Shown in pieces: positions 19,601 to 49,600 of a DNA stretch of 64,000 bases. Each line of letters begins with the position of its first letter. Positions within the stretch are counted from its first letter, which is position 1. The stretch comes from Candidatus Cloacimonadales bacterium. GTDB taxonomy: Bacteria; Cloacimonadota; Cloacimonadia; Cloacimonadales; JAFGVF01. Made by a program: the position numbers. The DNA is taken from the NCBI GenBank assembly GCA_963678315.1, contig OY782781.1, positions 2,400,001 through 2,464,000 of the forward strand, read 5' to 3'.

Positions 19601-22600
19601 AATCGTTTTTTCAAAATTTCCATTTTAACTGCTTTCACAGGAAACTTTATCGTTTGATTTATACTTTTAAAGTAGTTTTGTGGTTGTAAAGAACAGCATT
19701 AACAACCTTAAACGTCTAATAAATAAAGAGTTAACCTATTTTATAGTTTTAAGGCAATTGAAAAAATCGTTTTTACGCTTTTTTCTCACTGCAAAAACGA
19801 TTCGGTTTCTCACATTTGATAAAAAAGCGTAAAAACGATTTTGAAGAAGTGACAGAGTTTTTTCATTATTGATAAAAAACCGTAAAAACGATATTACTTG
19901 TTACTGAATACTCCACTTTTCAGATACTATAAAAATGACACCATTATTTCCATTTCAAAACTACTATATATAATCTTTAGTTATATCATAAAAATGGAGC
20001 ACTTTTGTAATTTTCATGAAATAATACGCTACTTAGTCATATTTTTTTTGTACTAGCTGTTAATAAGTATTGTTAAAATCCAAATCATCAATATCATAAT
20101 CATATGAATTATTATGTGAACATATTTTTAGTTGCATCGTTTCAAAGTTCTTTTTAATAATTTTTGATAATTCAGCTTGATCTTCTTCTAGGCTTTTCGT
20201 ACCAAAAATAACAGAAGTTATTGTTCGAGGATTGAATTCAATCAAATTACCTTCTTTATATTTAAGAACTCTAATCTCATCTTCTTCTTCCCAACATCTT
20301 TGCTTTGAAAAAAATATTTCTTTTATTGGGAAATCAAAGGAACCTTTCAAATAGGAAGTTTTAGGGAGTTCTTTAACATAATCGATTGGTAAAATTGGAT
20401 AAAAGAAAAGAGGGTCTTCTAAGACATCAAATTCCACACAAACACCTTTTGAGTTATCCCCATAATGAGCCCACATCTTTGTATTAGTTGGCGTTGTAGT
20501 AAAACAACTAGCTTTTGCAGAATCAACACTTTTACTTGCAGACTTTTGTAAAACATCTTTAAACCTAGACATAATAGACTTATCTGCATCGATTTGCACA
20601 GAGTTATTATATTTTGTTTCTAAATATTTCTTGTAATTCATACTATCTTCTTCGGTAAAGCTTTCAGGAAAAGGTGATCTTCCTTCAAACTCATCATTAA
20701 ATTTATCTAAATCTGAAAACCACATTTTCTTATTTTCAAACATTGCTAGTGTATAATCATTTATTGGCATATATTTATACAACTTATGAGGTATTATTTT
20801 ATCATGCACCATTTTTAAAATAATAAACTCTTTATAGAAAAGCATAAAATCATCTAAAGACATATTTAGCTTCTTAGCTCTTTCTGCATTATTTTTTTCC
20901 CTCCCGATCATTTTAGCCTTTTCACTCCATTTAAAAAAATCTTCCATTTGTTCTTTAGGTATTCCTATTTTACTAAACACAGATTTATAGGTTTTGCCCA
21001 TAGTTACACTAGATTTTAGTTCAATTAGCTTATCCATATATTCGAAATATTCAATGTTCATTATAAAGTTCTCCCTAAATTACCCTAAACAAGAAAACCA
21101 TCTCACCTAAGATTCTGAATGTCTCAAGTTCAAAGTCTTCTATTATTATTACATCAAAATCAGGATTTAAAGGTTTAAGTATAACCCTCTTCTTTTCCTT
21201 ATCGAATTGTAGTTTTTTGAGTGTGACACCCTCAGGAGTCTGACAAGCACTAATCTTACCATTTAGACTTGGAATATCAATAGACTCTTTTATTACTACT
21301 ACATCTCCATGCATTATCTTTGGAGACATACTATTTCCATTAACTTTAAGAGCTATATACTTATTTTCTTGATCTGACAAATAAGCTTTTGGTATCTCTA
21401 TATACTTTGATGGAGCATCATCATAACCATTCATTGGAGTACCAGCTGCAATCTCACCATATATAGGTAGAGTTATAACCCTTGAATCAAATGGGTTGAG
21501 TTTATGTTTATATACAGAGTTATTTCCTGTCATCTCTTCTATATTCTTTTTATGCCCATCCCCATACAGATTTCCATCTGAATCTAAAACAAACATTCCA
21601 CCTTTACCAGTTAATAACCAATTTAAGTTCAAACCATAGCGTTCGTTGATACGAGCCATGGCTGTTGCTGAAGGCTTACTAGTTTTTTTTCTGTTCAACC
21701 AATCTGATAGATTACCTGATGTTACTTCAATAGTATTCGCAAACTCGGAACGCTTTATATCAAGAGCATTTACGAACATTAACAGCCTATCTTTTATATC
21801 CATTTGATCTCCTATTTTACATATCATTTCATTTCGCATTGTTGCACACTGATGCGATGGACTGAAACTTTTCCTTGACTACTTTCGCATATTTTCGCTT
21901 TATAGATCTAGTAATCATTATTTGCAACATTGCGAACAATGTCAATAAAAATTTAGGAGGTTCGAATGAGATCACCCTATAAACCTGCTGTAATAAGATC
22001 AGCTATGACGCTTAAAAGACTCACAACAAAGGCATTAGCCGAACGCTTATTCATCTCCAGAAGATCATTAGATTATTTTATTAATGAAGGAAGGCATATA
22101 AGAAAAGCAGAAGATGTCTTAGAAATTCTTCAACCTGAGCTTGATGAGATAAGTGAAATTTATCGCAAACATACTAACATAGAAGTCGAGAGTTGCGAAA
22201 AGAGGTAATGATGGAATACAAAGAACTAACGGTTAACGATATTCAAAGAATGTTCTCGGTAAGTCAGGCTTCTGCATATAGAATGACTAAGACTTATAAA
22301 TGGGAGTTCGTTAACAAGCCTTTGAAAAAGGGTGGTAGAAAAAAACTTTATTTAGTACCAGTTAATTTAATTCCTACCAAAGAAAAACCTCTACCCTCTT
22401 TACCTAAAAGCAATAAACAGCCCTGTAAAGCAATATCTGAGGCTGTTAAAGCCGAGATAGTGGAGTATGACGATTCTATCAAAGACTTAGTACCAAGAAT
22501 TCAAGTTCCTGAAAGTGAGTTAATGAGAGCTCAGTTAAAAGCTGAACTTTGTGAGAGGATACTTTCTGAATATGAGAAGATAGGTGTAAAAAAACATGCT

Positions 22601-46600: not shown

Positions 46601-49600
46601 CAAATATAATTTAACCAATGTCCTATTAAATATCCGAAGTGGACTTAGATATATTATCTAATAAACTCAACGTCATTGAAATAAGTAAAGATAAGATCGT
46701 TATATATCATTAATCAATAGACATTTTGCTATTAATTAGTAACTCTTAAAGGTTTTATTCCGATACGTGTTACAAGTACTTCTCATTAGACTCAAACTCT
46801 GCAATACTATTTTATCAAAAGAATCTTCTTCATGTCTGTAATATTGCCACTTCTAATCTTATAGAAATATACACCACTTGAACTATTTTTATTTGCATTA
46901 TTAGTGCCATTCCAGACAATTTCATGAACACCTTGATTAAGATTATCATTTAAAAGATTCTTTACTAACTGCCCTCTAACATTGTAGATATCAACTGTTA
47001 CTTTTCCAGGTTTAGGAATGTTAAACTGAATTGTTGTTTCTGGATTAAATGGGTTTGGATAATTAAAAGCATTTAGTTCTGAAGAAGGTAGTTCAACATT
47101 GTCATTACCTGTATAGCCTGGTGATTCAAAGCATCCTATATCAATATTTTCACCAAACATTCTAGCATTACCATATAAATCCAACTCTGGCAATTGATAC
47201 CCTTCATTAGCATATTGGCTATCCATAATTCCACCATCTATCGCGGGTGAGAAACCATTCTCGTCATCTGCAAACAAGCGATAATGCTCTTTTGTCGCTG
47301 GGTCTGTCCCAGCAAAAAGCGGATCCTGTCCAAGGATATTACCTTCATCAACTAGCATATCAGAACTATCCCATACACAGAAAATATTATCATTTTCATT
47401 TTTAGTAAAAAGATTATTTTCTAAATAGAGATCGTGACTATAACCCATATCTCTGGACTGGTTGTTAGCAAATATTGAGTTTCTTACTGATGCATTTCCA
47501 TCAAACATAACTGAGTTATCAAATTCATGATAATTATTTGCTACAGTACAATTTGAAAAGTATATTTCACTTCCCAACAGGTTTAACATCTTTGTACCAC
47601 CTAAACTACTATTATTGGCAAATAGACAATTATCCATAATAATTGTGGTTTGTGCACCTGCGTTAAACTGAACAACCCTTGCTAACGAGAAACCAGGTTC
47701 TGATTCACATACATTGTTAACAAAAGTGCTGTTTTTTATTATAGCTGTTCCAGTATCATTAGTAATGTCTAAAGCACCGTTTGATCTATAAATCCAATCA
47801 TCATTAGGGTCATTATAACAATCTTGAATTGTCAAATTATCAATTACAATATCTTCTCCCCATAATCTTAATCCATACTCAGAGTATAATGCATGAATAT
47901 TTCTTAGGGTAACATCTTCAATTCTCATAGTTGCATCAGGTCCTGAAATGTAGAAATTACTAAATTCTATAACACTATCTTCTATTACAACATTCTTAAT
48001 TAAACAATCATATACTCTCCATGCAAAAAAGCTATTAGCCATGTTAGTAGTTATAGAAAGGTCACAAACTGTAGGGCTGTGACTTGTATTCATAAACCCT
48101 ATTGCTGCATAACCGTAAAACATATTCTCTGCATAAATCTTCGTTTGAGATGGAGATAGACCTTTCAATATAGTATATTCTTTAACAGATATTGGAAGAT
48201 ATTCTCCCTGAATATAATTGTGATGTTCCCCTGCCAAGAGATGTACGGTATTAGGGTTTGATGGATTTGACATAATCCTCTGCATTGCTAAAGAGGGCGT
48301 TTTCAGTGCAGAGTTTGGAGATAAACCACTATTGTTATCATTTCCAACTGGAGAAACATATAAATCACAATCAACTTCCTCTAGATACGCCTCTTCGACA
48401 TCAAAGACCTCATAAGGAGAAGATTCTGGGATATTATCTTCATCTCTTTCATACCAATCAGCAAAATATCTATCATAACCCGATTTAGTGAATTTATTTA
48501 AGTAAATTTCTCCATCAAAATCATGTGTACTACTCCAATAAATATCCATCCCCCAATTAGCAAAGTTGTTGTAAATGCTACATCTATTATTTTGAGAGAA
48601 AGTTACTCCATAAGCTTCATCAAGCTTGCCTAAAATTAATAATCCTCCCCCTCTCCATCTTGCAATGTTGTCGTATATATTCACGTTTTCAAGTGTTACG
48701 GTAGAAGAATAGGCAATAGCTACCCCTCCTCCTCCACTTGCTCTATTATTGTAAATGTTCAAGTTCCTTAAATCAAGAGAACAATGCATATATATATATA
48801 TGCCCCCACCAAGCACATTATGTGGCTGACCGTCGAACACATATCCTGTCCCTCCTGTTATAGATAACCCCTGAATGGTGCATGTACTTGTGTTTTCATG
48901 GCAACTTATCGTTGCACCAATATTATTACTGCCATCAATAACAGTTGATGAGATATATTCTTCATTGCCTGTCAAAATTTCTAATGATGCTAAAGTCAAA
49001 CCACTTAGTCCTGTTAATTCCAAATTTTCATGATAATGCCCTGGATAAACCAATATAGTATCACCAAACACTGCTTGATTAAGTGCAGTTTGTATCTCAG
49101 TATAAGGTTTTGTTCCATCTAAACTTACTTCTAACATAGCAGTAAGTTTAAGTGTAACAAAAATTATTAATAATACAGCAAAATATTTTTTCATAGTTTC
49201 CCCTCTCCTAAATATATTTAGGGCTAACCTAATAGGCTAGCCCACAATTATTAATTATACATTAAAATTCTATTTCATTAGGACCATTTTCTTAGTTACT
49301 ATAGAATGAAGTGTTTTAATTCTAGTGAAATAAACTCCAGAAGCAACAGATTGTCCATAATTATTTTTTCCCTTCCAAACGATACTATGAACACCAGCTA
49401 TAAGTTCTTCATTAACAAGTGTTTTTACTAATTGACCTTTAATGTTATATATCGCTAGATTAACCATGCTATTCTTTGGATTATTAAAACTAATCGTAGT
49501 TTCTGGATTGAATGGATTTGGATAATTATTTATGGTTAAATGATTTATTACGGGAACATTAATGTCTGATTCTTGGTTATCTTGACCGAAGATAAGTCTA

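Follow-up and report, generated by a model that had tools for sequence, protein, structure and literature searches.

The stretch of DNA analysed here (the window: contig OY782781.1, positions 2,400,001 to 2,464,000, 64,000 nucleotides, with window position 1 at contig 2,400,001) probably carries at 17578-54347 a defective Mu-like transposable prophage (copy 1) whose phage-borne cargo lies in a conserved hotspot. The host of this prophage and of a related one (copy 2, contig 2157457-2190500) is a Cloacimonadota bacterium. The slot of copy 1 holds two units, namely an Mrr-type nuclease with the candidate defence system PDC-M18, and a putatively exported pair composed of a subtilase (S8) and a 318-aa partner (Table 1).

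Table 1. Features of copy 1 and its borders (window positions)
Feature	Position	Strand	Evidence or remark
Left target-site duplication TTTGA, 5 bp	17573..17577	.	read directly; equals 54348-54352
Element left end	17578..17960	+	starts TATAAAGTGACACCC; subterminal repeats: TGACA..TTTCCA and AAAACGAT motifs
Unit 1 of 1.94-kb tandem duplication (left end, 333-aa gene, 3' half of repressor)	17578..19513	.	99.9% identity
333-aa gene, second variable position (left end to repressor)	20060..21061	-	PADLOC PDC-S31 E 3.4e-41; phrog_1762
CI-type repressor with S24 peptidase domain	21075..21839	-	PF00717 1.5e-21, PF07022
Mu-type DDE transposase (685 aa) and MuB-like AAA+ protein (237 aa)	22193..24973	+	PF09299 1e-18, phrog_310 1.3e-85, phrog_296 6.4e-28
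Early/middle genes: HTH protein, DUF3164, HTH_17, GemA-like	24981..26813	+	profile matches
Small terminase, large terminase, MuF-like minor head protein	26794..29667	+	phrog_38 7.2e-59, PF04233
Cargo slot (hotspot), MuF to small genes before portal	29668..40282	-	relatives: position constant, content and size vary
Mrr-type nuclease, 336 aa	29672..30682	-	PF04471 1.2e-15; weak type IV restriction match 1.1e-6
Candidate two-gene defence system PDC-M18 (B 161 aa, A 346 aa)	30692..32220	-	PADLOC: PDC-M18B 6.4e-39, PDC-M18A 3.7e-86
Insertion sequence, 1,675 bp, 486-aa DDE transposase, 19-bp inverted ends	32348..34022	-	PF13751, PF05598
Putatively exported subtilase, 1,534 aa	34065..38669	-	PF00082 2.7e-52, PF18962 33.8 bits
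318-aa partner	38693..39649	-	PF18962 53.9 bits
Three small conserved genes (141, 154, 124 aa), HK97-type portal, XkdF-type protease fused to capsid-like protein	40283..44468	+	PF04860, PF14550, phrog_1623
Conserved late genes (182 aa, 107 aa), Dam-type methylase	44684..46614	+	PF02086 7.2e-27; kept in relatives
Replacement block	46807..53135	.	two T9SS-sorted proteins (795, 831 aa, minus), 317-aa ECF-like sigma factor (plus)
122-aa conserved gene beside right end	53379..53747	-	homologues at contig 2189685-2190050 and 2205117-2205482, also in L116
Element right end	53980..54347	+	finishes GGGTGTCACTTCTTA; inverted subterminal repeats
Right target-site duplication TTTGA	54348..54352	.	equals 17573-17577

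The ends of the element are of Mu-like type, with inverted termini, subterminal repeats and a 5-bp target duplication, which reads TTTGA in copy 1, GTATC in copy 2 and ATTGA at the flanks of an independent prophage of the same family (L018/L137). A first-pass annotation had confined copy 1 to 21075-46614; the genes in that interval are as it stated, but the inverted termini and the duplication TTTGA give the larger extent used here. Copy 2, formerly taken to be truncated after the start of the portal gene, retains both ends (the right one at contig 2190500, with GTATC on both sides) and has had its middle replaced. The left-end start is common to copy 1, copy 2 and an internal junction at 19514, and regions similar to the right end of copy 1 lie at contig 2189629-2190500 and 2205114-2205945. 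This internal junction (...GCTGC/TATAAAG), which lies within the former repressor gene, opens unit 2 of a tandem duplication (17575-19516 versus 19511-21452, 99.9% identical in self-BLAST). The 333-aa gene, a match to the candidate defence family PDC-S31, is thereby present again at 18124-19125; the stretch from the left end to the repressor differs in copies 2 and 3.

Gene order and families of the backbone, as first annotated, are borne out by Pfam and PHROG matches. In common with phage Mu there are a leftward repressor at the left end, a DDE transposase with Mu C-terminal domain next to a MuB-like ATPase, GemA-like and MuF-like genes, inverted ends with subterminal repeats and the 5-bp target duplication. 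In contrast with Mu, whose termini start with TG, those of the present element start with TA. Its head module is not of Mu type except for MuF: the portal belongs to the HK97/Phage_portal type (PF04860), the protease is of XkdF type (PF14550) and fused to a capsid-like protein, and the order is terminase–MuF–slot–lysis–portal. Small genes, portal and protease-capsid gene follow each other in the same order in the relatives.

Copies 1 and 2 are both defective, as had been suspected from the outset, since the endolysin is missing and tail or head genes have been replaced. Copy 1 has neither the tape-measure gene nor the three or four distal tail genes of complete relatives; at the equivalent of its replacement block these relatives carry them together with a second methylase, and tblastn with the relatives' tape-measure and distal tail proteins gave no match in the window. 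Endolysins of the relatives were not found in copy 1, and copy 2 lacks the capsid gene. The replacing blocks of the two copies contain a sigma-like gene and T9SS-sorted proteins; the 795-aa and 831-aa sorting-domain genes of copy 1 sit outside the cargo slot. With both copies defective, it may be the host, and not a phage, that keeps the cassette, a point that we count against our main reading.

Relatives were collected with the terminase (19 genome loci, 18 of them labelled Cloacimonadota or synonyms, and 13 IMG/VR loci) and with the protease-capsid protein (135 viral stretches found, 80 kept). They form a widespread family of Mu-like siphophages of roughly 30-38 kb with a fixed slot between MuF and the run of endolysin, small genes and portal. 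The block had been sited between the terminase/minor-head genes and the portal gene, which is correct for the MuF side, but three small genes intervene before the portal. The core flanks are the same throughout and the content differs among relatives, named defence systems being included. Closed slots of relatives (n=15) measure 582-8,699 bp; of the 109 slot ORFs with at least 140 aa, 78 are antisense. PADLOC was applied to the window's own genes; the cargo of relatives was named via Pfam and comprises type I, III and ISP restriction-modification, ABC-3C, SIR2+HerA, AAA_13, Schlafen-type and UvrD helicases and SocA/Panacea. Most of it is defence-related, which by association favours a defence role over a nutritional one. 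The slot genes, mostly opposite in strand to the late operon, probably turn over fast by recombination at the conserved flanks.

ORFs with T9SS sorting domains, all antisense, are found upstream of u141 in 13 of the 80 viral loci (with near-duplicates among them: L086/L089/L090 and L105/L106) and also in the genome loci L004, L119 and L120. This cargo includes S8 in three of the viral loci scanned (L054, L065, L095), Peptidase_C25 in two, FG-GAP partners, beta-helix proteins and a PGAP1-like protein. The pair of S8 and 318-aa protein occurs antisense in the slot of four viral contigs, i.e. L065/L227 (59%/49% identity), L095, L054/L228 and L111, and shows 26-60% identity across viral contigs. 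On its far side the slot is closed by MuF in L227 and L228. L111 also has a full tail module and a split S8 homologue (1,306-aa and 233-aa ORFs). With the slot recurring both in IMG/VR contigs and in relatives of other genomes, and the pair lying there in these viral contigs, the original view of the block as phage cargo is upheld.

Within the slot of copy 1, two genes previously listed as unknowns match PDC-M18A and PDC-M18B; they are adjacent and co-oriented and can be considered as a candidate system on the basis of their sequences. The insertion sequence reported inside the block is indeed there, and copy 2 shows the empty site. It sits in a palindrome (hairpin at 34020-34043) in the gap that separates the stop of S8 from the start of u346, and breaks no reading frame. 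The name IS1182 had been given to this element, which has a DDE_Tnp_1_6 plus DUF772 transposase, 19-bp inverted ends and seven copies, the six further ones being 99.5-99.9% identical in self-BLAST.

The lengths first described are correct: the subtilases have 1,534 and 1,540 aa, and each copy has a partner of 318 aa. The paralogues of the partner outside the prophages were also confirmed, as two tandem chromosomal genes (contig 2259107-2261043). The 1,534-aa protein consists of a signal peptide, the S8 domain, FG-GAP-like repeats, a beta-helix-like region and a C-terminal sorting domain. Its triad D154/H204/S380 and the oxyanion residue N303 are invariant in 5/5 aligned homologues and follow the order of the family; the closest solved relatives are broad-specificity subtilisins (best: subtilisin E, 1.5e-30). 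The enzyme is predicted to be active. In the partner a signal peptide and a C-terminal sorting domain enclose a beta-sandwich domain that resembles a carbohydrate-binding module; its model (pLDDT 79.3) has 8wab as best fold match, with a TM of 0.69-0.70 on the target. Values of dN/dS (0.30 for S8, 0.28 for the partner) indicate that both genes are under purifying selection. Promoter-like sites in the cassette showed no excess over shuffles (70 versus 61.2, sd 6.8).

Both proteins carry recognised sorting domains, with 33.8 (S8) and 53.9 bits (318 aa) for PF18962 at a cut-off of 27, and 38.2 and 45.8 bits for TIGR04183 at a cut-off of 23. Judged by inspection, they begin with N-terminal Sec signal peptides (MKKIIVFITLIIVMSTLSA and MKRHLLIFLILFSIILQLYA, respectively). 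The host genome contains, over cut-off, one SprA_N match (93.5 bits) and one PorU-type sortase (573.6 bits). For GldM no match was obtained in the genome and for GldK only partial matches below cut-off; the control of one of these searches was also empty everywhere, so that search has little weight. We infer that S8 and its partner may be exported through the T9SS of the host. Sorting-domain matches number 126 in 2.99 Mb, and because such genes are so common in this genome some of them are expected near a prophage by chance.

The block had been thought to have diverged together with the phage genes; this is not borne out, as identity between the copies is not uniform. Self-BLAST gives 84.4% over 11,301 columns for 21076-32350 (versus contig 2158677-2169935) and 86.8% over 8,187 columns for 34019-42173 (versus contig 2169929-2178087). 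Mrr and PDC-M18 are 96-100% identical and the backbone 80-88%; dS amounts to 0.03-0.08 in Mrr, u161 and u346 versus 0.65-1.7 in backbone genes. S8 is a patchwork of stretches with 96-98% and 71-82% identity. Unequal dS and this patchwork mean that the cassette has been exchanged or converted between the copies recently.

Regarding function, in the mechanism that we favour the prophage would express the cassette during silence of the late genes, and the S8 and 318-aa proteins would leave via Sec and then the SprA/PorU-type machinery of the host. A lysogen would thereby gain a surface-bound or released degradative protease, and in a protein-fermenting host such cargo would amount to nutritional lysogenic conversion. 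A preprint describes the phylum as a likely degrader of protein or amino acids. This nutritional role, which presumes expression, export and a benefit to the host, is a serious but still tentative proposal that falls short of being probable.

Rather unlikely, in our estimation, is surface-level superinfection exclusion, in which the protease with its binder-like partner would trim or cover the proteins that phages use as receptors, or stop progeny from sticking to debris, and would belong functionally with the defence genes of the slot. Defence systems dominate the hotspot in relatives and Mrr and PDC-M18 lie beside the pair here, the antisense orientation fits expression in a lysogen, the modelled fold of the partner is similar to a binding module, and the patchy high divergence of S8 between the copies could reflect diversifying pressure. 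These divergent patches, however, do not exceed the divergence of the phage backbone, no receptor is known, the catalytic domain resembles subtilisins of general degradative type, and other cargo of the slot (C25 peptidase, PGAP1-like, beta-helix) resembles a degradative secretome. The wider proposal that this pair and also the C25-peptidase/FG-GAP pairs of relatives form an extracellular anti-phage module, with which a prophage would shave or cover receptors on the cell surface by way of the host T9SS, is in our view unlikely. That the cassette is a decaying passenger without current function, kept as dead prophages drift slowly, is improbable: endolysin and tail or head genes are missing in both copies, an insertion sequence has landed in the block and the S8 homologue of L111 is split, but the two S8 genes retain their full length and an intact triad, dN/dS lies at 0.28-0.30, the insertion sequence interrupts no frame and the pair is conserved across viral contigs. 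A role in the phage cycle, e.g. loosening of a proteinaceous surface layer at release, would agree with the position of the exported genes next to that of the endolysin in relatives; their strand is opposite to the late and lysis genes and 67 of the 80 viral loci have no sorting-domain ORF there, which makes it very improbable. Finally, host DNA between two unrelated phage fragments or a plain segmental duplication, suggested by the frequency of sorting-domain genes in the chromosome and proposed in the latter form by the first-pass annotation, is hardly conceivable and contradicted by prophage ends and relatives, as the two copies sit at different sites, each bounded by inverted ends and a 5-bp duplication of its own, and the slot with the S8 pair lies at the same place in viral contigs of other samples.

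Hotspots for accessory and defence genes are known from P2-like phages and P4-like satellites, and Pseudomonas Mu-like phages have an anti-CRISPR locus inside the head-gene region. The slot of the Cloacimonadota prophages shares with them the fixed position between core genes, fast turnover of content, known defence systems and expected expression from the prophage. It differs in phage family and host phylum, in splitting terminase and MuF from portal and capsid genes, and in that about one in six viral contigs has exported T9SS-sorted enzymes instead of or beside defence genes. In Bellas et al. 2020 (PMC7468147), on the ‘Cryophage’, T9SS sorting-domain proteins (an endoglucanase, a GH39 glycoside hydrolase and a PA14 protein) are described from variable genome islands as a unique occurrence, and use of the host secretion system by the phage is proposed. 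Phage-encoded T9SS-sorted cargo in a variable region is common to both cases; here it comprises proteases (S8, C25) and small partners, in Mu-like phages of Cloacimonadota and in one defined slot shared with defence systems. Hankyphage and the Porphyromonas transposable phages are likewise temperate, transposable and from the FCB group; they have short bounding repeats and candidates for lysogenic conversion. In the passages of PMC10367356 the terms T9SS, type IX or CTD have 0 occurrences.

The cargo slot is a further example of the known phage cargo hotspots and a second, better-defined case of phage-borne T9SS cargo. Definition of the slot, the phage family and the termini opens such cargo to a systematic survey. 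In anaerobic digesters the uncultured Cloacimonadota are abundant and degrade protein and amino acids, and a common temperate phage family would move exported proteases, other T9SS cargo and defence systems between their strains. If this is true, phages would provide a path for change in the degradative surface of the cells. Should the pair instead act as an extracellular anti-phage module, defence would take place outside the cell, and its genes would be exchanged at the hotspot that also serves the intracellular systems.

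Copy 1 (in the window) and copy 2, the two related Mu-like prophages of this Cloacimonadota genome, carry antisense cargo in a variable slot between MuF and u141, a gene named like the other u genes by the length of its product in amino acids. The feature is real and largely explained; firm are the termini, the existence of the slot and the finding that exported-type proteases recur in it. The gene list of the first-pass annotation was reproduced by an ORF map and family scans, including T9SS sorting domains on the 1,534-aa subtilase (S8; 1,540 aa in copy 2) and on its 318-aa partner. 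Self-BLAST confirmed the second copy with 84.4% and 86.8% identity on the two sides of the insertion sequence. The latter has six more copies in the genome; in five of the seven (that of the window and four of the six others) the flanks represent a palindrome split by the insertion, and those at 816474 and 1710431 are flanked by direct repeats. Window u346 and u161 match PDC-M18A and PDC-M18B, respectively, and a 333-aa gene adjoining the repressor matches PDC-S31.

Features of copy 1, its surroundings and related loci (window positions unless marked as contig)
Feature	Position	Location or remark
tRNA-like gene cluster	16300-17060	directly left of the prophage; internal 82-bp repeat, 16310-16391 / 16780-16861
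Solitary left-end-like site (AAATGACACCCAACTATTCC)	17282-17310	300 bp outside the left end of the element
Tandem duplication	17575-19516 / 19511-21452	1.94 kb, 99.9% identical
CI/S24 repressor (leftward), then Mu-type transposase and MuB-like ATPase		left part of copy 1
DUF3164, HTH_17, GemA-like gene; small and large terminase, MuF		upstream of the block
Mrr-type nuclease, 161-aa and 346-aa proteins, insertion sequence, 1,534-aa subtilase, 318-aa protein		opposite strand
Three small genes, portal, XkdF-type protease fused to capsid-like protein, two small genes, Dam methylase		plus strand
Two antisense T9SS-sorted proteins and 317-aa ECF-like sigma factor	46807-53135	in place of second methylase, tape measure and distal tail genes
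ECF-like sigma genes, 317-319 aa, long C-terminal extension	52182-53135; contig 2178097-2179056, ~821838-822620, ~2957798-2958715	both prophage copies and chromosome
Third phage fragment	56354-57732	left end, repressor, ner, transposase start; ~90% identical to copy 1
Right-end fragment (L003)	contig 2192050-2205945	right terminus ...ATGTCAATTTATA, then TTAAT
Distant transposable prophage	contig ~1,521,000-1,551,200	repressor 34%, transposase 24%, terminase 31% identical

The DNA immediately past the stop of the repressor differs among the copies, and a common sequence starting TATAAAGTGACACCC recurs farther left (17578, 19514 and contig 2157457, with a variant at 56354). Since at 19514 this left-end sequence is joined directly to the interior of a repressor gene (...GCTGC/TATAAAG, the slash marking the junction), the terminal base is fixed. 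The inverted counterpart ...GGGTGTCACTTCTTA, preceded by inverted subterminal repeats, ends at 54347. With termini so fixed, the five bases directly outside copy 1 read TTTGA at either end. Copy 2 ends with ...CCTGTCACTTTATA at contig 2190500, and GTATC borders it left and right; an independent prophage of another genome (L018/L137) has termini of this kind too and lies between two ATTGA repeats. These termini and flanking duplications therefore define copy 1 as 17578-54347 (36,770 bp) and copy 2 as contig 2157457-2190500 (33,044 bp), so that the limits proposed before (contig 2421075-2446614 for copy 1) are superseded. Copy 2 had been described as truncated after the portal start; its portal is cut, yet its right end and the flanking duplication are present. 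A search for clusters of AAAACGAT matched left ends only. No empty site was readable in the nearest genomes available, which belong to other genera (flanking oxidoreductase 80-81% identical), because gene order past the tRNA cluster is not kept there. The tandem duplication is inferred to stem from the left end of one copy inserted in the repressor of a sibling, followed by recombination. Its inner junction, the exact phage left terminus joined to mid-repressor sequence, looks like the trace of one copy transposing into a sibling. Two left ends about 2 kb apart occur as well in L005, a locus of another genome.

Relatives of these prophages were detected with the terminase (19 genome loci and 13 IMG/VR loci) and with the protease-capsid protein (135 viral stretches, 80 of them kept, and 28 genome loci). 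Among the genome records of the terminase search 18 of 19 are labelled Cloacimonadota or synonyms and one Woesearchaeota. The contig of this record (L007, Woesearchaeota archaeon) bears this bacterial Mu-like phage with a terminase 82% identical and is probably mis-binned. The conserved gene order comprises repressor, ner, A, B, HTH, DUF3164, HTH_17, GemA, TerS, TerL, MuF, the slot, endolysin, u141, u154, u124, portal, protease-capsid, u182, u107 and Dam. Complete relatives then carry a second methylase, a tape-measure gene (872-1,000 aa, matching tape measures in PHROG), genes for products of roughly 480, 150 and 220-280 aa, one small antisense gene and finally the right end. A literature search that covered few subscription journals yielded no report on Mu-like phages of Cloacimonadota or on their MuF-u141 slot.

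Across 15 loci with both genes the distance between MuF and u141 varies from 582 bp in L032, which has only the endolysin there, to 8,699 bp. Of the 109 slot ORFs with at least 140 aa, 78 are antisense. A Pfam scan took 101 of the 109, omitting eight from L028 and L030 with sizes that repeat L015 and L016. It named type I, type III and type ISP restriction-modification, Eco57I-type methylases, ABC-3C components, SIR2 with HerA, AAA_13, Schlafen-type and UvrD helicases, SocA/Panacea, radical SAM enzymes and a STAND NTPase. The slot is a hotspot for cargo and defence genes, of a kind known from other temperate phages, for example the P2/P4 hotspots and, in Mu-like phages of Pseudomonas, the anti-CRISPR locus.

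With a sorting-domain profile built from 68 segments of this genome, sorting-domain ORFs directly upstream of u141, all antisense, were found in 13 of the 80 viral loci (near-duplicates included) and in the genome loci L004, L119 and L120. In L009-L011 such ORFs follow MuF, and these loci stop short of u141. According to Pfam this cargo consists of subtilases, two C25 (gingipain-family) peptidases, beta-helix proteins and a PGAP1-like protein, with FG-GAP proteins of about 530-560 aa as small partners. The pair of S8 and its 318-aa partner is present in L065 (59% and 49% identity), L095, L054 and L111. Longer cuts of the L065 and L054 contigs (L227 and L228) both have MuF at the far side, and the slot of L228 also contains a homologue of the 795-aa protein of the window; in L111 the pair, with S8 split in two ORFs, is accompanied by a full tail module. 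Because T9SS-sorted cargo including this pair recurs in the slots of relatives, the central idea of the first-pass annotation, that the block is phage cargo, holds. Single-sequence locus searches with S8 gave no matches, and generic subtilases dominate among the matches listed for the S8 alignment. Bellas et al. 2020 (PMC7468147) describe a phage with T9SS-sorted cargo in its variable islands and term this a unique occurrence.

Between the two copies the backbone genes have dS values of 0.65-1.7 (nucleotide identity 80-88%), whereas those of Mrr, u161 and u346 are only 0.03-0.08. The stretch 29716-34787, which starts at the left edge of the slot, is 94-100% identical (one 200-column window 90%), S8 alternates between stretches of 96-98% and 71-82%, and identity in the 318-aa gene is 74-88%; dN/dS values lie at 0.18-0.36 for the cassette and at 0.04-0.22 for the backbone. 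The low dS of Mrr, u161 and u346 and the mosaic S8 contradict the former claim that the block diverged together with the phage genes; exchange or conversion of the block between the copies therefore took place after the backbone split.

Both copies are defective, as had been suspected, with genes missing or cut in each. Copy 1 has neither the second methylase nor the tape measure nor the distal tail genes. In copy 2 the portal is cut at about codon 212; next come a sigma-like gene, two genes for products of 251 and 360 aa and a gene for a T9SS protein of 1,483 aa, beyond which the last third of a 477-aa tail gene and its neighbours extend up to the right end. Searches with the endolysins of relatives detected none in either copy. 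The internal replacement of copy 2 is also found in G005, a genome of another genus (79-85% nucleotide identity), where flanking genes and slot content are both unlike copy 2; the right end of that element was looked for and not located. This common replacement may have been inherited or transferred, as the one housekeeping gene compared fits neither exclusively. In both prophages the ECF-like sigma gene is placed divergently beside genes of T9SS-sorted proteins, a layout suggesting that they are under its control. The two chromosomal sigma homologues have sorting-domain matches within a few kb. The third phage fragment is cut at 57732 by a repeat of about 60 bp with well over 100 copies in the genome. 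L003 contains u154, a part of u124, a DDE transposase, two T9SS proteins (343 and 2,227 aa), a 914-aa protein and a u122 homologue. The distant prophage is possibly intact since tape-measure, distal-tail and endolysin homologues are present.

S8 has a signal-peptide-like start, and D154, H204, S380 and N303 are invariant in five of five homologues. Its catalytic domain is closest, among solved structures, to subtilisin E, BPN' and Savinase and is followed by FG-GAP-like and beta-helix-like regions and the sorting domain. The 318-aa family has 35 matches, where named from Cloacimonadota-labelled records only. A first model of the partner from six sequences (pLDDT 61.9) was too poor for use; the later one (pLDDT 79.3) predicts a beta-sandwich with the sorting domain C-terminal to it. 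The fold is matched best by the chondroitin-sulfate-binding module 8wab (12% identity, TM 0.69-0.70 on target), a lead rather than an assignment. After the tandem paralogues of the 318-aa gene in the chromosome there remain about 250 bp of an S8 5' end; this locus therefore derives from the same two-gene unit.

Judged from sequence, both proteins are likely exported by the T9SS of the host, a case that is not complete on paper: besides 126 sorting-domain matches the genome has a single SprA_N match and a single PorU-type sortase that exceed the cut-off, while the search for GldM gave nothing and partial GldK matches all stay under cut-off. The host phylum is, according to a preprint, a likely protein and amino-acid degrader. 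We favour a role of S8 as putative degradative protease expressed by the lysogen. Its main rival is a putative function of S8 and partner in surface exclusion, because the pair keeps company with defence genes in the slot. As a degradative protease S8 would add to the proteolytic surface of the host. Phage cargo hotspots are already known, and the slot of this Mu-like phage family, with its T9SS-sorted proteases, is a further variant.
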